Shown piece after piece: positions 86 through 10,042 of a stretch of 10,307 nt of DNA. The stretch covers positions 1-10,307 of the forward strand of contig JBBDRO010000022.1 in assembly GCA_040905425.1 (NCBI GenBank), read 5' to 3'. A program made the translations under genes and the position numbers. Within the stretch, counting starts at the first letter, position 1, and every line of letters begins with the position of its first letter. The notes under the pieces were generated by a model. The model was not told where the DNA came from and ran no database searches. It was given only the letters and a program-made list of their open reading frames with translations. This DNA is from Gemmatimonadota bacterium (GTDB taxonomy: Bacteria; Gemmatimonadota; Gemmatimonadetes; Longimicrobiales; RSA9).

Positions 86-118
86 TATGATTGCGTAGCC
101 TGTTCACCCCGAATGGAG
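86..118 (+). promoter_or_regulatory. Candidate -10 box (TATGAT, 86-91) and RBS (GGAG, 115-118) for the beta-propeller gene
   Basis: 5/6 match to TATAAT in a GC-rich background. GGAG lies 8 nt before ATG 127. No clear -35 box. Confidence 0.4.
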
Positions 119-126
119 TGCCGCTC

Positions 127-1341
127 ATGCCACGCTGTGTGTGCCTGGTGTGCCTCACCGTGGTCGCCATCGGCGGTGCGGCCTGCGGTGGCGCAAACAC
201 GCCGGAGACCACGGAGTCGTGGGCCGGCACCGTGGACACCCTACCGGGCGGCGCCGTCCACGTAGTGAATCCCGCACAGGGTGTCTGGACCGAGGAAGAC
301 CGCTGGCGGCTGACCGAGGCGCTGCGCATCGGCGCGGTGGACGGTGCGGGCCCGGAGCTCTGGGAGCGCGTGGGCGGCATGGCGGTCGATGGGGGCGGGC
401 GCCTCTGGGTGACCGACGCGGCCGCCGGTGAAGTGCGGGTGTTCGACGCCGCCGGACGGCATGTGCGCACGGTGGGGCGAGCCGGCGGCGGGCCCGGCGA
501 ATTCCGCTCGCCCCGCGACATATGGGTCACGCCCGCGCAGGAGGTATGGGTCGTCGATCCGACCGCCAGGCGCATCGAGGTTTTCGACACGGCGGGGACG
601 CGGCTGCACGGTGTGCCGCTACAGGGCCACATCGAAGCCATCACGGCCAGCCAGCAGTATGTCTGGACCGACGACGGGCTTCTGCATCAGACCTTCACCC
701 GCGCGGCGCCGGGGCCCATGCGGAACCGCCTGGCGGTGGTGCGGCACCGGTGGGAGGGGGGGACGCTTACGGCGCTGGACACGTTCCGCCTGCCTGAGGT
801 GGCGCCGGTGCCGCGCTTCGGCTTCCCGATGGAGGGCCCGGCCGGGCCGGCACTCGGCATCATGAACGTTCCCTACGCGCACGCTCCGCTGCGCACGCTG
901 GGCCCGGACGGTAGCGTCTGGATCTCGGAGGGGGATGGGGCCTACCGCATCCGCCGGCAGAACGCGCGCGGTGACACCCTGCGGATCATCGAGCGCGCGG
1001 TCGAGCCGATCCCGGTGCCCGACTCCGTTCGCACCCGCTGGAGCGAGACGATGGCCGGCAGCGCAGATGTGCCGGAACTACCGGACGTCATCGCGCCCTT
1101 CCAGACCGTTTTTCCGGCACCTGACGGCACGCTCTGGGTGCGCCGTCAGACGGGGCCGCGGAGCTATGTGCTGGATGTCTTCGATGCCGCCGGCCGCTAC
1201 CTGGGCGAGGCCATGGCCGACGTGGCGCTGAGCCGCTTCGGCGTGCAGCTGGTCACGTCGGACGCGCTCTACGGTACCATGAGCGACGACCTGGGCGTGC
1301 AGTACGTGGTGGCGCTAAGGATCGAAAAGCCGGAGCCGTGA
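127..1341 (+). CDS. 6-bladed beta-propeller (NHL-repeat-like) lipoprotein, about 404 aa
   Basis: ATG 127 with an RBS is preferred over TTG 91. Hydrophobic signal ending in a lipobox-like GAA-C. NHL-type motifs GMAVDGGGRLWVTD, VRVFDAAGRHVRTVGRAGGGPGEFRSP, DGSVWI, DGTLWV and DVFDAAGRYLG. Confidence 0.85.
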   Translation: MPRCVCLVCLTVVAIGGAACGGANTPETTESWAGTVDTLPGGAVHVVNPAQGVWTEEDRWRLTEALRIGAVDGAGPELWERVGGMAVDGGGRLWVTDAAAGEVRVFDAAGRHVRTVGRAGGGPGEFRSPRDIWVTPAQEVWVVDPTARRIEVFDTAGTRLHGVPLQGHIEAITASQQYVWTDDGLLHQTFTRAAPGPMRNRLAVVRHRWEGGTLTALDTFRLPEVAPVPRFGFPMEGPAGPALGIMNVPYAHAPLRTLGPDGSVWISEGDGAYRIRRQNARGDTLRIIERAVEPIPVPDSVRTRWSETMAGSADVPELPDVIAPFQTVFPAPDGTLWVRRQTGPRSYVLDVFDAAGRYLGEAMADVALSRFGVQLVTSDALYGTMSDDLGVQYVVALRIEKPEP

Positions 1342-1450: not shown

Positions 1451-2965
1451 ATGGGCCAATCAGCCATCAGCCGCGCAGCACCCACGCTCGGGCCGGCCGC
1501 TACCCTGGCCGTCGCACACCGGCCGGCCGCCACCCTGGCCCGCGCGATTGCGGCCGCCCGGCCGGCGGCACTGGCCTTCGCCGCCGGGGCCGCCGTACTT
1601 GCGGCACTCGCCCCGCCGCCGGCCGCCGCCCAGTACGCCATGGCGGACCGCGTGGATCGCATCTTCGCGGACTTCGCGGCCTACGACCGGCCGGGGTGCG
1701 CCGTGGCCGTGAGCGAGGAGGGGCGTGTCACGCTCGAGCGCGCCTATGGCATGGCGGAGCTGGAGCACGGCGTGCGCAACACGCCCGCCACCGTCTTCGA
1801 GGCGGGCTCCGTCTCGAAGCAGTTCACGGCGGCGGCCACCATCCTGCTGGCGCTGGACGGCAAGATCTCCCTGGAGGATGACATCCGGGACTATATCCCT
1901 GAGGTGCCGGACTACGGCCCCACCATCACCATCCGTCACCTGCTGAACCACACCAGCGGACTGCGCGACTGGGGCTCGGTGGCGTCGCTGGAAGGGTGGC
2001 CGCGGACCTCCCGCGTGCACACGCACGATCACATGCTGGACATCGTGAGCCGGCAGCGGGCGCTGAACTACCCGCCGGGGGAGCGCTACTCCTACACCAA
2101 CACGGGTTACAACCTGCAGGCGGTGCTGGTGGAGCGGGTGAGCGGGATGCCGTTCGCGGAGTTCAGCCAGCGGCACATCTTCGACCGGCTGGGCCTCTAC
2201 AACACGGAGTGGCGGGATGACTACACACGCCTGGTGCCCAACCGCGCGCAGGCCTATACGCGCTCCCGTGACGGTGGCTGGGCGCTGAACATGCCCTTCG
2301 AGAACGTGCACGGGAACGGCGGGCTGCTGACCACGGTGGGGGACCTGCTGCGCTGGACGGAGTCGCTGGAGCGGGCCGAGCTGGGGGAGCGCTTCGTGGC
2401 GGAGATGCACCGCACGGGCGTGCTCAACAACGGCGAGTCCATCACGTACGCGAGCGGCCTCGTGGTGGGGCAGTATCGGGGCGTGCCGGAGATCAGCCAC
2501 AGCGGCTCCACCGCCGGCTACCGCGCCTACCTGGCGCGCTACCCCGAGCAGCGCGTGGGCGTGGCCGTGCTGTGCAACGCCGCCAACGCCAGCGCCGGCG
2601 GCCTGGCGCACGAGGTGGTGGAGCTCTGGCTGGGCAACGCCCTGGCGCCCGTGGCGCGGCGTGACGCCTCGCAGCAGGGTGGACAGGAGGAGCCGCCGCC
2701 GCGCTGGGAGCCCACGCCCGCCGAGCTCGGCGCCTTCGTGGGCACCTATCACAGCCCGGAGGCCAACGCCACCTACACGGTGAGCGTGCAGGATGGCGAG
2801 CTGATGCTGCAGCGGCCCTTCCGCTCGCCGAACGCGCTTACTCCAGGGCGGGAGGCGGACACCTTCGGCAGCTACCGCTTCATCCGGGACGCCGCCGGCC
2901 GCGTCATCGAGCTGAGCGTCTCCTCCAGCCGCGTCTACGACATGCGCTTCGAACGCGTGCGCTGA
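1451..2965 (+). CDS. Secreted serine hydrolase of the beta-lactamase/D-Ala carboxypeptidase fold (AmpC/D-aminopeptidase-like) with a C-terminal beta domain
   Basis: SxxK in FEAGSVSKQF, LLNHTSG, YxN in YSYTNTGY, and HSG in ISHSGSTAGY. Ala-rich signal ending AAA-Q. The start codon is uncertain because of the long repetitive N-terminus. Confidence 0.9.
   Translation: MGQSAISRAAPTLGPAATLAVAHRPAATLARAIAAARPAALAFAAGAAVLAALAPPPAAAQYAMADRVDRIFADFAAYDRPGCAVAVSEEGRVTLERAYGMAELEHGVRNTPATVFEAGSVSKQFTAAATILLALDGKISLEDDIRDYIPEVPDYGPTITIRHLLNHTSGLRDWGSVASLEGWPRTSRVHTHDHMLDIVSRQRALNYPPGERYSYTNTGYNLQAVLVERVSGMPFAEFSQRHIFDRLGLYNTEWRDDYTRLVPNRAQAYTRSRDGGWALNMPFENVHGNGGLLTTVGDLLRWTESLERAELGERFVAEMHRTGVLNNGESITYASGLVVGQYRGVPEISHSGSTAGYRAYLARYPEQRVGVAVLCNAANASAGGLAHEVVELWLGNALAPVARRDASQQGGQEEPPPRWEPTPAELGAFVGTYHSPEANATYTVSVQDGELMLQRPFRSPNALTPGREADTFGSYRFIRDAAGRVIELSVSSSRVYDMRFERVR
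1491..1540 (+). repeat. In-frame 20-bp direct repeat (30-bp period) in the signal-peptide region
   Basis: GGCCGGCCGCtACCCTGGCC (1491-1510) and GGCCGGCCGCcACCCTGGCC (1521-1540), 19/20 identical, both encoding PAATLA. Confidence 0.75.
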
Positions 2966-3032: not shown

Positions 3033-3071
3033 AAGCGACGACGTCCGGGAAGCTGCCGGGCGTCGTCGCTT
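3033..3071. terminator. Long hairpin, probably a bidirectional intrinsic terminator between the convergent hydrolase and kinase genes
   Basis: AAGCGACGACGTCCGG (3033-3048), 7-nt loop, CCGGGCGTCGTCGCTT (3056-3071), 15/16 complementary. Followed by ATTT on the + strand and TCATT on the - strand. Overlaps the kinase TAA. Confidence 0.75.
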
Positions 3072-4746
3072 ATTTCCGGCGCGTATCACGATCCACGAGC
3101 ACGATGTTCAGCGCCAGCATGAGGCCGCCCACGGCCGCGGCCAGGAAGAGCAGCATGGCCAGCGCGGGATAGCCCAGGATGGTCCACGCCGTGTCCACGC
3201 GCATGAGCAGGGCGGCGCCCAGGATGAGGGCGGCCAGGACCACGCCGAGCGTGATGCGGTTGGCGATCTTCTCCATGCCCTCCATGAGGCGGCCCTCGTC
3301 GAAGGCGTTGACGCGCACCTCGAGGTCATTGTCCGCCACCCGGTCCAGCACGCGGTTCATGCGCTCGGGCAGGTGGCGCACGAACTCGGTGAGCTCCATG
3401 AGGCCGGCGGCCATGTTGCCCGGGGAGATCTCCTGCAGCATGCGCCGGCGCAGCACGTCGCTGGCGTTGCGGCGGAGGGCTTCGGTGGGGTTGAAGTCGG
3501 GGTCCAGGGTGCGCGTGACCTGGTCCAGGTTGAGCAGCGTCTTGCCGAAGAGCGCCAGCTCCGGCGGCTGGCGCACCAGGTTCTCCGTGGATACGCGGGT
3601 CAGCTCCAGGAAGATGCGGCCGGTGGGGGTCCGATCGATCGTGGCGCCGGCGTGCTGCATCACCACGCGGGCAATCTCGCGCAGATAGCGCTCCTCGTCG
3701 TGCCCCTCCAGCGGCTGACCCAGCTGCAGCGACTCGCGCGCCGCCTCCTCCGCGTTCCCCTCGGCCACCGCCAGCAGGAGCTTCAGCAGCCCCTCGCGCA
3801 TGCCCTGGCTGACGTGGCCCACCATGCCCAGGTCCAGCAGCGCCAGGCGGCCGTCCTCGGTGAGGAAGACGTTGCCGGGGTGCGGGTCGGCATGGAAGAC
3901 GCCGTCCACCAGGACCTGCTGCAGGTAGGCTTTGAAGAGCTGCTCGCCGAGCGCGGCGCCGTCCACCTCCAGGCGCGCCAACGGGCTCACCTTGGTGATC
4001 TTGCGGCCGCGCACGTAGTCCATGGTGAGCACGCGGCCGGTGGTGTAGTCGAGCACGGGCCGGGGGATGACCAGCCGGTCGAAGCCGGCCAGGTTCTCCG
4101 CCAGCAGGAGCAGGTTGGAGGCCTCCTGGCGGTAGTCCAGCTCGCGCGCCAGCGACGTCTGGAACTGCTCCAGCACCTCCCCGAAGCCCACGCGGCGGCC
4201 GGCCTCGGTGTGCTCGTCAAGGAAGCCGGCCAGCTCGGCGAGCGCTTCCAGGTCATCCGCGATGCGCTGCCGGATGCCCGGCCGCTGGACCTTGACCGCC
4301 ACGTGGCGGCCGTCCCGCATGACCGCACGGTGCACCTGCCCCAGCGACGCGGCTGCCAGCGGCTCGTCCGCGAAGCTCCGGAAGGCCTTGGAGATCCGCA
4401 CGCCCAGCTCCTCCTCCACCAGCGCCACGGCTTCGCCGCCGGGGAACGGCTCCACCTCGTCCTGCAGCGTCTCGAGCGCCTCCAGGTAGCTGGTGGGGAG
4501 CAGGTCCGCGCGCGTGGAGAGGAGCTGGCCGAGCTTGATGTACGTGGGACCGAGCGCCTCCAGGTCGGCGCGCAGCCCCTCCGCCGCGGCCGGCGACCCC
4601 TCCGCCAGCGGTTCGTCGTGCGCCGTGGCGGAGAGCGTCTCGGCCAGGCCGGCCTGGCGCACCAGGTCGCCGTGCCCGTGCTTGATCAGCAGACGGGCCA
4701 CCCCGCCGTAGCGGGCCAGGTGCTTGGGTTTCAGGGACAGGGCCAT
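3070..4746 (-). CDS. AarF/UbiB (ABC1) family atypical protein kinase, 558 aa, with two C-terminal transmembrane helices
   Basis: LGPTYIKLGQLLSTRADL (KxGQ), LAAASLGQVH (A-rich loop), VAVKVQRP, ELDY, FHADPHPGN and LLDLGMVG. RBS GAGGAG precedes ATG 4746. True ubiB orthology cannot be established from this sequence. Confidence 0.95.
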   Translation of the reverse strand: MALSLKPKHLARYGGVARLLIKHGHGDLVRQAGLAETLSATAHDEPLAEGSPAAAEGLRADLEALGPTYIKLGQLLSTRADLLPTSYLEALETLQDEVEPFPGGEAVALVEEELGVRISKAFRSFADEPLAAASLGQVHRAVMRDGRHVAVKVQRPGIRQRIADDLEALAELAGFLDEHTEAGRRVGFGEVLEQFQTSLARELDYRQEASNLLLLAENLAGFDRLVIPRPVLDYTTGRVLTMDYVRGRKITKVSPLARLEVDGAALGEQLFKAYLQQVLVDGVFHADPHPGNVFLTEDGRLALLDLGMVGHVSQGMREGLLKLLLAVAEGNAEEAARESLQLGQPLEGHDEERYLREIARVVMQHAGATIDRTPTGRIFLELTRVSTENLVRQPPELALFGKTLLNLDQVTRTLDPDFNPTEALRRNASDVLRRRMLQEISPGNMAAGLMELTEFVRHLPERMNRVLDRVADNDLEVRVNAFDEGRLMEGMEKIANRITLGVVLAALILGAALLMRVDTAWTILGYPALAMLLFLAAAVGGLMLALNIVLVDRDTRRK

Positions 4747-4794
4747 GCGCGCTCCTCGGCGGCGCCTTCATGGCCCCAGCCGGGCGCCCCGGAA

Positions 4795-4810
4795 TGCAAG
4801 GGGCAGGCCG
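4795..4810 (-). promoter_or_regulatory. Candidate sigma54 (-24/-12) promoter for the ABC1 kinase
   Basis: The minus strand reads CGGCCTGCCCCTTGCA: GG-N10-GC with a canonical TTGCA -12 element, about 50 bp upstream of ATG 4746. Confidence 0.55.
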
Positions 4811-4837
4811 CGCGAGGGGGTGCGGGCCCGCTACGCC

Positions 4838-4866
4838 TTGCGTTGGCCTCCGCCCGCTTCCAGCTT
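4838..4866 (+). promoter_or_regulatory. Candidate sigma70-type promoter for the SDR gene
   Basis: TTGCGT (4838-4843), 17-bp spacer, CAGCTT (4861-4866). RBS GGAG at 4932-4935. Confidence 0.3.
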
Positions 4867-4942
4867 TGGCAGGCTCCGGCGCGGCGCCGCTCAGCCGCCC
4901 TCAGACCCCAAGCCTCCAGCAGACCTTCAGTGGAGACGGTTC

Positions 4943-5800
4943 ATGTCCCGTAGCAGCAACCCCGGCAGCGTCCTGGTCACCGGTGCATCCAAGGGCATCG
5001 GGGAAGCCTGCGCGCTGCGCCTGGACGGCCTGGGGTGGCGGGTGTTCGCCGGGGTGCGCCGCACGGAGGACGGGGCGGCGCTGCGGGAGAAGAGCTCGGA
5101 GCGGCTGGAGCCGCTCATGCTGGACGTCACCAGCGGCGAGCAGGTGGCGGCGGCGGGGCAGCGCGTCGACGAGGCGTGCGGGGAGGCGGGGCTCACGGCC
5201 GTGGTCAACAATGCGGGCATTGCCATAGCCGGGCCGCTCGAGTTCCTGCCGGTGGAGGAGCTGCGCCGGCAGCTCGAGGTGAACGTGGTGGGGCAGGTGG
5301 CGGTGACCCAGGCCGTGCTGCCGGCGCTGCGCCGCGCGCGCGGGCGGATCATCTTCGTGGGCTCGATCGCCGGGCGGAGCGCCATGCCGTTCACGGGCGC
5401 CTACTCGGCCTCCAAGTTCGCGCTCGAGGCCGTGACCGACTCCCTGCGGCTGGAGCTACGCCCCTGGGACATGCACGTGGCCATCGTGGAGCCCGGCGTC
5501 ATCAGCACGCCCATCTGGGAGACCTCCGCCGCCCGCGCGGAGGCCAATCTGGCGCGCATGCCGGAGGAAGCGGAGCGCTACTACGGCCGGCCGCTGGAGG
5601 CACTCCGGCGCCGCGCCCGGCTGGGCATCGAGGGGCTGCCCGCCAGCCAGGTGGCCGAGGTGGTGGAGCACGCACTCACCTCCAGGCGGCCGCGCACGCG
5701 CTACGTGGTGGGCTCGGACGCGGAGCTGCGCCGCTTCCTGGAGACGCTGCCCGACCGCCTGCGGGACTACATCATCGCGGGGCGGTTGAAGAAGCTTTAA
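4943..5800 (+). CDS. Classical short-chain dehydrogenase/reductase (17-beta-HSD/retinol dehydrogenase-like), about 285 aa
   Basis: TGASKGIG (TGxxxGxG), NNAG, catalytic S in VGSIAG, YSASK (YxxxK) and IVEPG. ATG 4943 with a GGAG RBS is preferred over the ORF-track start at 4724, which overlaps the kinase. Confidence 0.95.
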   Translation: MSRSSNPGSVLVTGASKGIGEACALRLDGLGWRVFAGVRRTEDGAALREKSSERLEPLMLDVTSGEQVAAAGQRVDEACGEAGLTAVVNNAGIAIAGPLEFLPVEELRRQLEVNVVGQVAVTQAVLPALRRARGRIIFVGSIAGRSAMPFTGAYSASKFALEAVTDSLRLELRPWDMHVAIVEPGVISTPIWETSAARAEANLARMPEEAERYYGRPLEALRRRARLGIEGLPASQVAEVVEHALTSRRPRTRYVVGSDAELRRFLETLPDRLRDYIIAGRLKKL

Positions 5801-5848: not shown

Positions 5849-7111
5849 TCAACGCTGCAGCGTCGAGACGTCCAGCACGTAGAGCCCGCTCACCATGTCC
5901 GACGCCCACACGCGCGTGCCCCGGTGCTGCACCCCCCAGACGGCCACGGGGCTCACGTCACTCAGCCCCACACCCGCTTCCCGCTCCATGAGCGTCAGGT
6001 TGCAGCGGCCGTCGGCGGCGCGCTGCTGCGCGCTGCAGGCGGACAGGTCCCCGCGCACGTCCAGCGCGCGCACGCCGCCGTTGTAGAAGGCGGCGTAGAG
6101 CACGCCGTTCTCCTCGTCCAGGTCGAAGTTGTGGGCGCCCGCACCGGGCACGTGGTAGAAGGCCACCTCCACCGGGTTGGCCATGTCCGAGACGTCCACC
6201 ACGTGCAGGTCCCCGCCCGAGCTGAACCCGATGGAGCCGCCCACCTCCTCCTCACCCACGAAGGCGTAGCGCTTCTGCCCCGTGAGCGCGTCGTGGTACC
6301 ACCACACATTGTGCACGTTGCCGCCCTCGGTGAGCACGTTGCCGAGCTCGACCGGGTCGGCGGGTGTGCCGCCGAGCTCTCCGCCGCCGATGTCCCACAG
6401 CGTGAGGCCGGCGTCCCAGAGGGCGGTGAAGAGGATGCCGTCACGCACGAAGACGTCATGCACGAAGGGCTGGCCCATGGTGCGCACGAGCACCTCCACC
6501 GGGTTGGCCGGATCGGACAGGTCCAGGATGACCAGCGCGGCCGCCACCGGCTCCGGAAAGGTGTTCAGCGGGTCGATGGAGAGGAAGGCGTACAGGGTGC
6601 CGCCCACCCGCCCGAACTTGGCGGTGTGCACGCCGGGGTTGGTGGCCTCCGAGTTATAGCGCGTGATGAGCGGGGGGCGCGCGGCGTTGGCCTGCAGGTC
6701 GTAGAGCATGACGGAGCCGCCGGTGCGCTCGGTGGCCACCATGAGGAGTTGGCCGTCGTCAGAGACCTGCACGTCGCCCGTGGTGCTGGCGAAGGGGACG
6801 ATGAGCGAGTCGGTGGCCACGGGCTCGTCACCGGCGATGTTCCACACCACCACCTTGTTGCCCGGATTGCCCCCGCGGTTGGACCAGGAGCTGGTGTAGG
6901 CCCAGCTGCCGTGGATGGCTACCTCCGCGGTATAGCGCTCCGGCACCTGGCCGTGGCCCACCACCGGGAGCGGCGCGGAGACCGGTAGCTCCTCCTCGTC
7001 GTCGTCGATGGGGGCCACGGGATCATCCTCGCAGGCGGTGGCCACGGCCAGGATGAGCGCCAGGAGGAGCGGGCCGGCGGATCTGCGTGCGGTCATGCTA
7101 TGGTGCCTCAT
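5849..7111 (-). CDS. LVIVD-repeat beta-propeller lipoprotein, about 420 aa
   Basis: ATG 7111 overlaps the upstream TGA (ATGA). Signal LLLALILAVATA-C is a lipobox, followed by an acidic linker. Repeats LVILDLSDPANPVEV, LHVVDVSDMANPVEV, VRALDV and LYVLDVS. Confidence 0.88.
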   Translation of the reverse strand: MRHHSMTARRSAGPLLLALILAVATACEDDPVAPIDDDEEELPVSAPLPVVGHGQVPERYTAEVAIHGSWAYTSSWSNRGGNPGNKVVVWNIAGDEPVATDSLIVPFASTTGDVQVSDDGQLLMVATERTGGSVMLYDLQANAARPPLITRYNSEATNPGVHTAKFGRVGGTLYAFLSIDPLNTFPEPVAAALVILDLSDPANPVEVLVRTMGQPFVHDVFVRDGILFTALWDAGLTLWDIGGGELGGTPADPVELGNVLTEGGNVHNVWWYHDALTGQKRYAFVGEEEVGGSIGFSSGGDLHVVDVSDMANPVEVAFYHVPGAGAHNFDLDEENGVLYAAFYNGGVRALDVRGDLSACSAQQRAADGRCNLTLMEREAGVGLSDVSPVAVWGVQHRGTRVWASDMVSGLYVLDVSTLQR

Positions 7112-8421
7112 GGTGTTTGTTCGTGTCCGCTGCTCCGGGCGGCGCCGTAGCGGCCCATACGGACGTGCCGCATGCCGGCCCCCAGCGTGAGTCCCACGGA
7201 GAGATGCCACTGCTCTGCCCGGCCGTACTGCTCCACCGGGTCGTAGATGGAACCGGTGAGCTCCGCCACGGTCTGCCAGGACGCCTCCACGAAGGGCGTG
7301 GCGCGAAGCGGGCCCACGCCGCGGCGGTGCTCCGCGCGGCCCGAGACCACCACCCAGCGCGTCACACCCACCAGGTGGGCGTCCGCGTGCGGGTAGGGGG
7401 TGCGGAACGGGTCGCTCAGCCGCTCCTCCTCGGGGCGGGTGCTCCGCTCCAGGCGGAGCGCGCCGCCCCAGGCGCCGCGCCGCAGCGCCGCCTCGCCGAG
7501 GACGCTCTCAAAGGTGTACACCCGCCGGCCCTCTTCGTGCTCGCTCGTGCGGGCCCACTCGACCAGGCCGTAGGCGGAGCCGCCCGCCAGCGGCACTTCC
7601 GCACGCGCGGACGCGCTGTACTTGCGGTGGTCCAGCGCGATACCGCGGATGCGCTGGTCGGCGGCCACGCGGGCGGTGCTGACCTGCAGCTCGAGGCCGG
7701 GGCGGGGCAGCGCCGTTAGCCGGGCCGCCCACGAGCGGCCGAAGCCGTCCAGCCCGCCCACGTCCTCCGGGCTGCGGGGTTCGGCGCCCGTGAAGATGCC
7801 CGCCTCCGCCACCACGGGACCGCGCGCCCAGGCCGCGCTGGCCAGCACCCGCTCGGGGAGCTGCGCCAGGTGGTGGTTCAGGGGGAACTTGATGAACGGC
7901 CGGGCCATGGGGTCGTCCGTGCCGAAGGGCGCGAAGCCGCGGCCCACCGATAACGAGGCGCTTCCGCCCGCCACGGGCGTCCGGCCCGAGAGCACCAGCT
8001 CGTGCAGGTAGGTGTGCGGATGGCGCCGGTCCACGTAGCCCTCCCCCCATATGCCGGCGGTCAGCTCGCCGCGCTGGAGGGTGAGCCCTTCCAGGTTGAG
8101 CATGCCCGTGGCGCTGAGCCGCCCGCCGGCCAGGGTGGCCGCGGCGGTGAGCACCGGCTGTGTCAGGTAGCCCTCCGTCAGCGTGCGGTCGGCCAGCGCG
8201 GGGGCGGCGCGCGTGAGCAGGCCGGTGGCGGAGGCGCCCAGGTGCAGCGCCGCGCCGGCGGGCGGCGTGGCGGGCGGTGGGGCGTGTGCGTGGTTCTGGG
8301 CGGCCGCGCCGGTGGTGGCGGTGGCGAGGGTGAGCGCGGCCACGGCCAGGCGGAGGGCACGCGGGCGCGGGGCCGGCGAGGCGGCGGTCGGCCATGCGGG
8401 GCGCGCGGTGCAGGCGTGCAA
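7108..8421 (-). CDS. Putative outer-membrane beta-barrel protein of unknown function, His-rich; start uncertain (TTG 8421 or CTG 8445)
   Basis: Signal peptide RALRLAVAALTLATATTGAAA-Q followed by NHAHA. Many amphipathic strands with alternating hydrophobic residues (SWAARLTA, LELQVSTARV, YSASARAE, YGLVEWAR, TPFVEASW, WHLSVGLTL). Motif WGEGYVDRRHPHTYLHEL. Translationally coupled to the downstream lipoprotein. Confidence 0.7.
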   Translation of the reverse strand: MHACTARPAWPTAASPAPRPRALRLAVAALTLATATTGAAAQNHAHAPPPATPPAGAALHLGASATGLLTRAAPALADRTLTEGYLTQPVLTAAATLAGGRLSATGMLNLEGLTLQRGELTAGIWGEGYVDRRHPHTYLHELVLSGRTPVAGGSASLSVGRGFAPFGTDDPMARPFIKFPLNHHLAQLPERVLASAAWARGPVVAEAGIFTGAEPRSPEDVGGLDGFGRSWAARLTALPRPGLELQVSTARVAADQRIRGIALDHRKYSASARAEVPLAGGSAYGLVEWARTSEHEEGRRVYTFESVLGEAALRRGAWGGALRLERSTRPEEERLSDPFRTPYPHADAHLVGVTRWVVVSGRAEHRRGVGPLRATPFVEASWQTVAELTGSIYDPVEQYGRAEQWHLSVGLTLGAGMRHVRMGRYGAARSSGHEQTP

Positions 8422-8441
8422 CGCGGTCAGGGCGGCGGCGC

Positions 8442-9245
8442 TCAGCGGCGCTCTGCCTTGGCCGCCAGCTTCGGCGTGCGGGCTTGCACCGCCGCCGGCA
8501 CGCGCGGATCGGGCGGCGCGGAGCGGCGGCGGCGGCGCAGCCGCATGCTGCTGCACGCGCCCGCCTGGCAGCCCACCCGCTCGGCGATGGCGCGCCACGG
8601 TTCACCGTGTCCGCGGTGGCCGTGTTCGAGCCAGGCCTCTGCGTGCGCCATCTCGTGTAGCATGGTGTCCAGCAGCGCCCCCTCGTTGCTCTCCAGCATG
8701 AGGTCGGCGTTCAGGGCCAGTTCCGAAACCACGTGCCGGCCCCGGCGCCGATCGTAGGCCACGTGCCCGAAGCGGCGCCGCATGCGGGCGCTCAGGCGGA
8801 GCGGCAGGTCCGCCGGGAGGCGCCCGCCGAAGTGGGAGCGATTCAGGTTGCGGTACAGGGTGCGCAGGTAGCGGTCCTGGGCGGGCGTGGCGCAGGTGGG
8901 CGCCGGCCGGGGGGGCTCCGCGGCCTGCTCGGCCTGGCGCTCCCACCACGCGCGCATGCGCGCCACGTTCTCCCGGAAGGCCGCCGTGCGCTGGGGCAGG
9001 AGGACGAAGGCGGCCACGGCGTCCAGCACGCCCTCGGGGGCCGTGCGGAAGCATTCGTGGACGTTCAGGGTGGAGCCGCGCGCGGAGATGGAGACGATGC
9101 GGGTCCGGTTGGGCTTGAAACGGACCTGGCGGATGCGCGTCACGCCGCGCGCCACCATGGCTTCGAGGAAGGCCTCCTCGTCCAGGGCCGCGAAGGCAAG
9201 GCTCAGCTGGTCATCCGACCGGCGACGGGAACGGGCTCGGCTCAC
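8442..9245 (-). CDS. SprT-like zinc metalloprotease domain protein, about 267 aa
   Basis: LYRNLNRSHFGGRLP, RMRRRFG, TMLHEMAH (HExxH, 8643-8657) and HGEPWRAIA are diagnostic SprT-family motifs. GTG 9245 has an AGGTG RBS 7 nt upstream and is preferred over 9440. Confidence 0.88.
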   Translation of the reverse strand: MSRARSRRRSDDQLSLAFAALDEEAFLEAMVARGVTRIRQVRFKPNRTRIVSISARGSTLNVHECFRTAPEGVLDAVAAFVLLPQRTAAFRENVARMRAWWERQAEQAAEPPRPAPTCATPAQDRYLRTLYRNLNRSHFGGRLPADLPLRLSARMRRRFGHVAYDRRRGRHVVSELALNADLMLESNEGALLDTMLHEMAHAEAWLEHGHRGHGEPWRAIAERVGCQAGACSSMRLRRRRRSAPPDPRVPAAVQARTPKLAAKAERR

Positions 9246-9394
9246 CTGAAAACACCTGCGTGAGAAGCGTGAATGAAGCCTGAGAACGGCGTTTCCAGCC
9301 GCCCTGCATGGGGCGTGCCCCCTCCTGTCCGGGCGCGCCGCCGTTGCCCCGCGCGGCGCGATGAGACAAATAGAAACCCGGTGGCGGGAACGGC

Positions 9395-9446
9395 GCAACG
9401 GGGGCTCCGGCCCGGCCGACGCAACCTCCAGCCGTCCCACCGTGTC
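9395..9446 (+). promoter_or_regulatory. Candidate ECF-sigma autoregulatory promoter(s)
   Basis: GCAAC-N17-TGTC (9421-9446), immediately preceded by GCAAC-N17-CGAC (9395-9420). Both fit the AAC(-35)/CGT-GTC(-10) ECF pattern. Confidence 0.5.
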
Positions 9447-9448
9447 CC

Positions 9449-10042
9449 ATGAACCGAGAGCACGATCGTGACTTCGACAGCAGAGACCGGGTGGACGAGG
9501 CCGAGCTGATCCAGCGCGTGCTGCGCGGCGAGCCCGCGGCGGAGCGGGAACTCTACGACGCCCATGTGGAGCGGGTCTACAGCCTGTGCTATCGGCTGGC
9601 GGGCGGGGATCCCGACCTGGCGGCGGATTTCACGCAGGAGGCCTTCGTCCGGGCGTTCGAGAAGCTGGGCACCTTCCAGGGTCGCTCGCGGCTCTCCACC
9701 TGGCTGCACTCCGTGGCCGTCTCGGTGGGGCTGAACGGCATACGCAAGGTCAAGCGGAACCGGCAGCGGGAGACGGCGCTGGACAGCGTCCCCCCCGCGG
9801 CGCTGGCCACGCGGGATCGGCAGGTGGAGCCGGATCTGAAACAGCGCCTGCGGGAGGCCGTGGGGGGGTTGCCGGAGAAATACCGGACGGTGTTCGTGAT
9901 GTACGACGTAGAGGGCTACACGCACGAGGAGATCGGCGCCGCGCTGGCCATGCCCGTGGGCACGTCCAAGGCGCGCCTCTCCAGGGCCCGCGCCAAGCTG
10001 CGGGAATGCCTGGCGGAATTCGCGGGAGAGTGGGCCGTATGA
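9449..10042 (+). CDS. ECF (sigma-70 family group 4) RNA polymerase sigma factor; alternative start GTG 9491
   Basis: Region 2 AADFTQEAFVRAF...RLSTWLHSVA and region 4.2 EGYTHEEIGAALAMPVGTSKARLSRARAKL. No region 3. Confidence 0.95.
   Translation: MNREHDRDFDSRDRVDEAELIQRVLRGEPAAERELYDAHVERVYSLCYRLAGGDPDLAADFTQEAFVRAFEKLGTFQGRSRLSTWLHSVAVSVGLNGIRKVKRNRQRETALDSVPPAALATRDRQVEPDLKQRLREAVGGLPEKYRTVFVMYDVEGYTHEEIGAALAMPVGTSKARLSRARAKLRECLAEFAGEWAV

Follow-up and report, generated by a model that had tools for sequence, protein, structure and literature searches.

This report concerns a gene for a SprT-like zinc metalloprotease on the minus strand of a 10,307-nucleotide stretch of DNA from a Gemmatimonadota bacterium of the order Longimicrobiales (assembly GCA_040905425.1, contig JBBDRO010000022.1), and in particular a six-residue peptide near the N terminus of its product, QLSLAF, that resembles the motifs by which bacterial proteins bind the sliding β-clamp, DnaN. 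The whole stretch, referred to here as the window, has a G+C content of about 72%. The gene lies within a minus-strand open reading frame (ORF) that runs from position 9440 down to a TGA stop codon at 8444-8442, and its features are collected, together with the neighboring genes, in Table 1.

Reading frame and start codon

The only in-frame ATG, GTG, or TTG codon between the motif and codon -63 is GTG 9245. The 267-residue product read from this codon (9245-9243) opens with MSRARSRRRSDDQLSLAFAALDEEAF; minus-strand translation gives MSRARSRRRSDD, then QLSLAF, and then AALDEEAF..., in agreement with the position (residues 13-18, 9192-9209) assigned to the motif by an earlier interpretation made without database searches, hereafter the sequence-only reading. 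The closest database homologue, P0002, is 93% identical and is annotated with 21 additional N-terminal residues. In the window, the counterpart of this extension, MQGGWKRRSQASFTLLTQVF, sits in a different reading frame. A frameshift is thus tolerated there, and for this reason the stretch upstream of GTG 9245 is taken to be non-coding, a comparison that uses the P0002 protein sequence alone. A longer ORF of 332 residues (8442-9440) was rejected as the gene: its upstream stretch is out of frame with respect to P0002, and it would stop 8 nt short of the start, at 9449, of a divergent gene for an extracytoplasmic function (ECF) sigma factor.

At its start, the gene in the window is unlike its relatives, having a GTG codon with AGGTG upstream. 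In several loci of the genome scan described below (L001, L011, L015, L017, L019, L025, and others), -10-like boxes (TAGAAT, TAGATT, TAGACT, and TATCAT) lie 6-10 nt upstream of the SprT ATG, a proximity that suggests leaderless SprT transcripts. A scan of positions 8300-9600 for sigma-70 promoters and intrinsic terminators returned no promoter-like sites and no terminators.

Protease domain and predicted structure

Pfam assigns residues 128-230 to the SprT-like family (PF10263; 61.2 bits against a gathering cutoff of 25.6, E = 1e-16). The zinc site HEMAH...HGEPW, described as intact in the sequence-only reading, is indeed so: HEMAH occupies residues 197-201 (8657-8643), and HGHRGHGEPW comes after it. 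Conservation was assessed in an alignment, A1, of 48 motif-bearing sequences hand-picked for intact N termini, which also served for the profile, AlphaFold2, and co-folding work described below. In A1, no variation is seen at H197, M199, H201, H213, or G214, and at least 90% of sequences have E198; the histidines of HEMAH together with H213 presumably act as the zinc ligands. Cysteines are also conserved around the protease domain: most relatives have C-C-x-T ahead of it, where the window protein has a single Cys, in TCAT, and C226-x4-C231 lies after it. These flanking residues may make a second metal site, loosely like the Zn-binding subdomain of SPRTN.

The AlphaFold2 model has a mean predicted local distance difference test (pLDDT) score of 88.3 and consists of an α/β domain (residues 23-107), the protease domain, and a low-confidence basic tail. 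The first helix spans residues 23-32 and no secondary structure precedes residue 23; residues 1-10 average a pLDDT of 50, and the ten that follow (11-20) average 57. In this model, the motif lies in an accessible, disordered terminus. The α/β domain has no Pfam match, and a search of the ESM Atlas with residues 19-112 gave best scores of 0.89, to unnamed clusters, below the 0.9 that the tool sets as its threshold for a lead. No hydrophobic stretch of the signal-peptide kind follows the basic leader, as judged by reading the sequence rather than with a predictor, which agrees with the earlier view that the protein has no signal peptide. The PADLOC defense models gave no family at E ≤ 0.01, and matches in PHROGs were weak and confined to SprT-like phage families of unknown function.

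Conservation of the motif in close relatives

Clamp-binding motifs follow Q-φ-x-[L/M]-[F/L] or Q-φ-x-[L/M]-x-[F/L], as set out in the available part of a review of the β-clamp (PMC11139829), and QLSLAF is of the hexameric type. Scored as Q-[LIVM]-x-[LM]-[FL] or Q-[LIVM]-x-[LM]-x-[FL], the pattern occurs three times in the 20,610 residues of a six-frame translation of the window, equivalent to about 0.003 matches per 20-residue leader. A lone match is only mildly unusual, and the case therefore rests on comparative evidence across homologues.

A word-indexed search found 207 homologues, of which the best 120 were examined. Those that carry a name are annotated as 'SprT family zinc-dependent metalloprotease' and come from metagenome-assembled genomes (MAGs) of Longimicrobiales or Gemmatimonadetes. 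With the Asn of a conserved R-F-K-x-N-R strand as register anchor, and Q-[LM]-x-[LF]-x-[LFIVM] or the pentamer QLxLF as the pattern, 69 of these best 120 have the motif in a constant position, 32-37 residues ahead of the anchor and mostly at -33. It is present in 67 of the 79 closest homologues (P0002-P0080); of the 12 without it, two were called from a start inside the motif (P0039 and P0040), five from the first helix, one is a fragment, and four have unrelated N termini. Among the 41 more distant homologues listed, two have it (P0081, QLDLF; P0086, QLELF).

Gene callers started P0039, P0040, P0051, P0053, P0054, P0057, and P0058 inside or just after the motif. At locus L013, the stop-to-stop ORF contains the motif and an ATG upstream of the internal ATG that was used to call P0051 and P0054. 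Since starts are often placed in this way, the motif is partly hidden in public annotations.

Independence from gene callers was obtained with stop-to-stop ORFs in a scan of one genome per species, which yielded 80 loci (by title, 76 Gemmatimonadota-lineage MAGs, three entries labeled 'uncultured bacterium', and one Planctomycetota MAG). The motif is in frame at 19 of these, all among the 25 best; 18 were scored by the anchor and one, L011, was read by eye. Across the window and these 19 loci, the Gln is present in 20 of 20 (CAG in 18, CAA in two). Position 2 is Leu in 19 and Phe in one, with the codons CTG, CTC, CTT, and TTG; position 4 is Leu in 18 and Phe in two; position 6 is Leu in 16, Phe in three, and Val in one; and positions 3 and 5 vary freely. 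Synonymous codon variation at the conserved residues indicates that selection acts on the peptide rather than the DNA. Ahead of the motif, the leader is variable in sequence but consistently rich in Arg and Lys and acidic at its end, with Asp at -2 in 14 of 20, whereas the segment [SA]-W-L-[ST]-E-[DE]-[DE] just downstream is conserved in relatives (the window has Ala for Trp). The expectation in the sequence-only reading, of a conserved motif between diverging flanks, was thus borne out for the motif and the upstream leader but not for the downstream flank.

An in-frame ATG also lies 9-17 codons ahead of the Gln at each of the 19 motif-bearing loci. Translation must begin upstream of the motif, because amino acids are conserved there with synonymous codon changes and because of these upstream ATGs. 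A start at ATG 9158 (MVARG) alone, which the sequence-only reading had named as a threat to its proposal, is excluded by the conservation of the amino acids upstream of that Met. On these sequence comparisons, the motif is conserved beyond chance among homologues.

The motif in the wider family

When the A1 profile was run against 1.84 billion cluster representatives, it gave 2,615 matches at E ≤ 1e-3, 186 at E ≤ 1e-10, and 66 at E ≤ 1e-30. Counts for the wider family refer to the best 150 of the 2,615, from which 95 representatives were kept (at least 200 residues, with HExxH) and 55 fragments or sequences without HExxH were dropped. A canonical motif lies at a terminus in 28 of the 95, within the first 50 residues in 23 and the last 30 in five. 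Against these 28, one thousand shuffles of the same termini gave a mean of 1.27 (standard deviation 1.11, maximum 5), and the middles of the 95 proteins contain two matches in 18,542 residues. These position-based counts replaced a narrower anchor pattern that missed many cases (59 of the 150 full length, 15 of the 59 with the motif versus 0.3 when shuffled). N-terminal examples are MELQLSLF (P0170), QLDLF (P0260), and QLGLF (P0251); at the C-terminal end are found ...GGQLSLF (P0152) and ...GDQLRMF (P0145), with QLDLF within about 12 residues of the C terminus in P0127. The Pfam SprT-like domain was present in all 11 motif-bearing members tested.

A quick maximum-likelihood tree was built from 94 representatives and the window protein (200-400 residues, P0264 left out), with motif states assigned by a relaxed pattern. 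Its rows comprise 34 with an N-terminal motif, seven with a C-terminal motif, and 54 with none, and at least 19 changes are needed to account for them, against a mean of 34.1 for shuffled labels. The consensus is kept while the terminus and the pentamer or hexamer form switch, and it therefore behaves as a short linear motif and not as part of the fold. Two of ten distant motif-bearing clusters carry a taxon label (Gemmatimonadota and Gemmatimonadales).

Three members have unusual architectures. P0248 (463 residues) combines radical-SAM/CofH-like domains with a region matching the N-terminal domain of the family and is either a real fusion or an artefact of assembly or gene calling. P0164 (347 residues) is longer by about 200 residues at its N terminus, in which Pfam finds nothing at E ≤ 0.001, and P0264 (877 residues) has a SprT domain together with a SprT zinc ribbon (PF17283); both may likewise be real or artefactual.

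Co-folding with the clamp

Residues 1-36 of the protein, co-folded with the E. coli clamp (Swiss-Prot DPO3B_ECOLI), gave a score of 0.75 (individual runs 0.76, 0.75, and 0.73), and the best of three controls gave 0.00. The mark that this passes is reached by 116 of 157 solved complexes and by two of 215 mismatched pairs, a calibration that is rough here, given that the alignment was our own. Agreement between the runs is at least 75% of contacts, and the partner peptide has a pLDDT of at least 54. The confident interface joins partner residues 12-19 to β residues 172, 174-177, 242-243, 246-247, 278, 320, 344, 346, 360, and 362-366; of these, Thr172, Gly174, His175, Arg176, Leu177, and Pro242 belong to subsite I of the peptide pocket of β, according to the available part of PMC11139829. 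Modeling with DnaN, which the sequence-only reading had proposed as a check, therefore places exactly residues 12-19 in the canonical pocket, albeit that of a stand-in for the host clamp.

Comparison with known systems

SPRTN is the sole family that the A1-based profile finds in the PDB (6mdw, E = 8.7e-6; 6mdx, E = 2.7e-5), with nothing else under E = 0.5. The alignment brings HExxH and GHG into register and ends at about residue 232. Foldseek likewise has human SPRTN as its top PDB match (6mdx_A; E = 7.9e-3, probability 1.00, template modeling score 0.44 on the target, 24% identity over 115 columns). The likeness extends from the homologous SprT-type HExxH...GHG domain to the RLRRRRR run immediately after it in the window protein, which corresponds by position and composition to the basic DNA-binding region of SPRTN, located at residues 220-230 after the SprT domain in the available part of PMC9240642. 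Both proteins also have a short sliding-clamp motif in a disordered region, predicted in the case of the window protein.

The differences are equally clear. The motif of the window protein is N-terminal and of the bacterial Q-L-x-L-x-F type for DnaN, whereas SPRTN has a PCNA-interacting peptide (PIP) box for PCNA. Pfam finds the SprT domain only, with no SHP, UBZ, or ubiquitin-related parts, and there is an additional N-terminal α/β domain of unknown family. No counterpart of the Zn-binding subdomain with which SPRTN binds single-stranded DNA was recognized in the window protein, for which the alignments stop at about residue 232, although it has conserved Cys residues (C226, in at least 90% of sequences). 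With a bacterial-type motif, and without PIP box, SHP box, or UBZ, the window protein is to be regarded as an analogue of SPRTN and not as a member of that family, and its clamp tether is most simply a convergent acquisition.

A hexameric clamp-binding motif in a disordered N terminus is also found in E. coli Hda, the N-terminal peptide of which, PAQLSLPLYL, binds β with a dissociation constant of 0.38 μM (available part of PMC11139829). Its QLSLPL recurs unchanged in many relatives of the window protein. Hda itself is not a protease but a DnaA-related AAA+ regulator, and it has only the motif in common with the window protein. SprT of the E. coli type (NCBIfam NF003421), which combines a SprT domain with a zinc ribbon, is a fellow member of the Pfam SprT-like superfamily. 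Against NF003421, the window protein reaches 21.5 bits (E = 1.4e-4, cutoff 175), and Pfam finds no match to the SprT zinc ribbon (PF17283), so that it is not an orthologue of E. coli SprT. Wss1/WLM proteins and the minigluzincins (selecase, jannalysin, and abylysin) have in common with it the small zincin fold with HExxH. In Foldseek, the minigluzincins come next after SPRTN (E = 0.015-0.1) and Wss1 (5xbn) ranks 29th (E = 1.4), but neither group has a sequence-level match to the window protein. We know of no clamp motif in the Wss1/WLM or minigluzincin families.

Genomic neighborhood

Upstream of the SprT gene is a divergent ECF sigma/anti-sigma pair, of which the sigma gene lies at 9449-10042 on the plus strand; downstream, a gene for a secreted protein of unknown family begins about 20 nt past the SprT stop and is followed by the gene for a LVIVD-repeat protein. 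Of the 19 motif-bearing loci, 12 have the sigma/anti-sigma pair (63-72% identity) beside the SprT gene, ten of them within 55-284 nt. Gene order is kept in 8-12 motif-bearing loci, with unrelated downstream genes included in 8-10, and because these share the synteny no functional link is drawn from the neighbors.

The sequence GCAACC-N15-GTGTC occurs at 9421-9446 on the plus strand, 2 nt before the sigma ATG at 9449. GCAACC (GGTTGC in the SprT-oriented alignment) is invariant in 13 of 13 intergenic regions, and GTGTC is similar in most, with two bases invariant. The arrangement looks like an ECF-type autoregulated promoter for a leaderless or nearly leaderless sigma mRNA. In loci L007 and L009, about 1.2 kb of additional, mutually similar sequence separates the ECF sigma and SprT genes, as compared with 55-284 nt in the other ten.

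The minus strand at 7108-8421 holds two long overlapping ORFs, the conserved frame being 7108-8598 (eight loci at 48-57% identity, from about residue 89). Its product has a signal-peptide-like N terminus, with a possible TTG start near 8421. This is the secreted protein downstream of SprT; it has no match in Pfam, NCBIfam, or PADLOC and is possibly co-transcribed with the protease.

Table 1. Features of the SprT-like gene and its product, followed by other genes of the window
Feature	Position	Strand	Basis
SprT-like zinc metalloprotease coding sequence, 267 aa, stop TGA 8444-8442	8442-9245	-	ORF and translation; Pfam PF10263, E = 1e-16; 207 homologues at E ≤ 0.001
Shine-Dalgarno-like AGGTG, 7 nt upstream of GTG start (putative)	9253-9257	-	Sequence reading
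GTG start codon	9243-9245	-	Sole in-frame start in 62 codons upstream of motif; stretch before GTG frame-shifted relative to P0002
Basic low-confidence leader SRARSRRRSDD, residues 2-12, last two acidic	9210-9242	-	pLDDT 50 (residues 1-10) and 57 (11-20)
Candidate β-clamp-binding motif QLSLAF, residues 13-18, hexamer type Q-φ-x-[L/M]-x-[F/L]	9192-9209	-	Conservation; residues 12-19 dock in clamp pocket in silico
N-terminal α/β domain of unknown family, residues 23-107, with conserved R-V-R-F-K-x-N-R-[ST]-R strand	8925-9179	-	AlphaFold2, pLDDT 85-98
SprT-like metalloprotease domain, residues 128-230	8556-8864	-	Pfam; profile match to human SPRTN 6mdw, E = 8.7e-6; Foldseek top match 6mdx_A
Zinc-binding and catalytic HEMAH (H197, E198, H201), residues 197-201	8643-8657	-	Sequence and alignment A1
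H213 of GHG motif, presumed third zinc ligand	8607-8609	-	H213 and G214 invariant in A1; aligns with SPRTN GHG
Conserved Cys positions flanking protease domain	8552-8570 and about 8889-8897	-	Alignment A1
Basic run RLRRRRR, residues 235-241, right after protease domain; candidate DNA-binding region	8523-8543	-	R237-R239 at least 90% in A1; analogy with SPRTN
Low-confidence C-terminal tail with conserved V-P, residues 242-267	8445-8522	-	pLDDT 60 and 51 in last two blocks; P250 at least 90%
NHL/β-propeller protein	91-1341	+	Domain match
β-Lactamase-fold protein	1451-2965	+	Domain match
ABC1/UbiB-type kinase	3070-4746	-	Domain match
Short-chain dehydrogenase	4724-5800	+	Domain match
LVIVD-repeat protein	5849-7210	-	Domain match

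Interpretation and competing explanations

The reading that we favor, with a probability of roughly 0.55, is that the gene encodes a cytoplasmic SprT-like zinc metalloprotease that starts at GTG 9245, carries a Hda-type β-clamp-binding motif, QLSLAF, in a disordered leader, and functions as a clamp-tethered, SPRTN-like crosslink protease. The proposal of a clamp-tethered, replication-coupled DNA-protein crosslink protease was already made in the sequence-only reading, and its two halves have fared differently. Clamp tethering is now well supported in silico, by the conservation of the motif, its family-wide excess over shuffled sequence, and the co-folding. DNA-dependent, replication-coupled proteolysis of DNA-protein crosslinks is something that we infer only, from domain homology with SPRTN, the conserved basic run, and analogy.

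In the proposed mechanism, the motif would insert into the hydrophobic peptide pocket of DNA-loaded DnaN and so concentrate the protease on replicating or recently replicated DNA, a step to which the modeling and comparative results lend support. The conserved arginine run after the protease domain would contact DNA, and the HExxH...H site would cleave proteins that are stuck on DNA or crosslinked to it, either at the fork or behind it, making the enzyme, by homology and analogy, a bacterial functional analogue of PCNA-tethered SPRTN. The same logic may apply to the whole, mostly Gemmatimonadota, SprT-like family, with the motif at the N or C terminus and in pentamer or hexamer form. A broader and more tentative proposal, to which we would give somewhat less than even odds, is that this entire family, so far almost only from Gemmatimonadota, consists of β-clamp clients that form a dedicated replication-coupled DNA-protein crosslink protease, that tethering evolved independently of that in eukaryotes (QLxLxF and DnaN versus PIP box and PCNA), and that the motif was gained, lost, or moved many times.

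A number of observations weigh against the favored reading. The motif is lacking at 61 of the 80 loci and, even under the relaxed pattern, in 54 of the 95 tree rows, and 39 distant homologues of those listed start right at the first helix without it. With much of the family lacking the motif, tethering is not universal, or else miscalled starts conceal the motif or it is present in cryptic form. The segment after the motif is conserved as well, so that some of the conservation may be structural. Alignment A1, on which the co-folding and the AlphaFold2 model depend, was hand-picked for motif-bearing N termini. The clamp used was E. coli DnaN, standing in for that of the host, whose gene lies outside the window, and because complexes of β-clamp and peptide have been solved the pass may reflect model memory; what the co-folding shows is the likeness of the peptide to a clamp ligand and not binding. 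The Foldseek match to SPRTN is weak, there being no match at E ≤ 0.001, and no neighbor in the window points to DNA repair. Finally, PIP-box mutants of SPRTN stay proficient in crosslink proteolysis (available part of PMC9240642), and clamp tethering therefore need not define the substrate but may tune function.

In one competing explanation, the protease is tethered to the clamp but its substrates are not crosslinks. It would instead remodel or regulate the replisome through cleavage of proteins bound to the clamp or to DNA (stalled polymerases, nucleoid proteins, initiation regulators, or a repressor, for example), much as regulators of the ImmA/IrrE type act. All of the clamp-binding evidence fits this equally well, and the analysis is silent on the substrate; structures of IrrE/PprI are among the weak Foldseek matches (E above 1), and the divergent ECF pair adjoins the gene in 12 of 19 loci. 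The nearest solved homologue, SPRTN, is however a crosslink protease and not a regulatory one, the arginine run matches the SPRTN DNA-binding region in position, and the synteny, which in 8-10 loci takes in downstream genes that are unrelated, may reflect nothing more than conserved gene order. We consider this explanation unlikely.

Less probable again is that the N-terminal segment is no clamp ligand at all. It could serve as an autoinhibitory or structural element that binds to the protease itself, as in minigluzincin zymogens, or else as a degradation signal or a ligand of some other partner. The conservation that runs past the six residues into [SA]-W-L-[ST]-E-[DE], the many family members without the motif, and the presence of zymogen-type minigluzincins (jannalysin, abylysin, and selecase) among the best Foldseek matches would all be in keeping with such a role. 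Set against this, AlphaFold2 leaves residues 1-20 unpacked on the domain; the conserved residues, Q1, L2, L4, and L/F6, are exactly the clamp consensus positions, while 3 and 5 vary; the pentamer QL[SDG]LF or the extreme C-terminal placement found elsewhere is unfit for a fixed intramolecular contact; and the co-folding puts precisely residues 12-19 in the canonical pocket, with controls at 0.00. That the motif is a chance match, or is left untranslated by a gene starting at ATG 9158, is already disfavored and to our minds very improbable. At about 0.003 per leader, matches are to be expected somewhere in any genome, and callers did begin P0051, P0053, P0054, P0057, and P0058 at or after the first helix, but the amino acids before the internal Met are conserved with synonymous variation in 20 of 20, every locus has an upstream in-frame ATG, and the ORF of L013 has the motif upstream of the internal ATG used for two of those same proteins.

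Novelty and implications

A full-text literature search, which covered neither subscription-only papers nor supplements, turned up no paper in which a bacterial SprT-like protease is connected to DnaN or to a clamp-binding motif; one match on SprT together with DnaN/beta-clamp, PMC12363180, is unrelated as far as its available part goes. For the repair of DNA-protein crosslinks in bacteria, the available part of a review of DNA-protein crosslink proteases (PMC7782752) mentions only nuclease-dependent routes (nucleotide excision repair and recombination) and names no bacterial counterpart of SPRTN or Wss1, and the word 'protease' is absent from the text of the β-clamp review (PMC11139829). What is apparently new here is the conserved clamp motif on known SprT-type proteases, which would make of them an apparently convergent analogue of the SPRTN-PCNA pairing.

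At a practical level, miscalled starts, such as those of P0039, P0040, P0051, and P0054, hide the motif in databases. More broadly, a SprT family with a conserved clamp motif offers a concrete and directly testable candidate for the gap in that account, a bacterial counterpart of SPRTN. If the proposal is true, the protease would represent a new class of enzyme among β-clamp clients, and the family would illustrate convergent evolution clearly, one and the same protease fold having been tied to non-homologous clamp pockets by unrelated short motifs.

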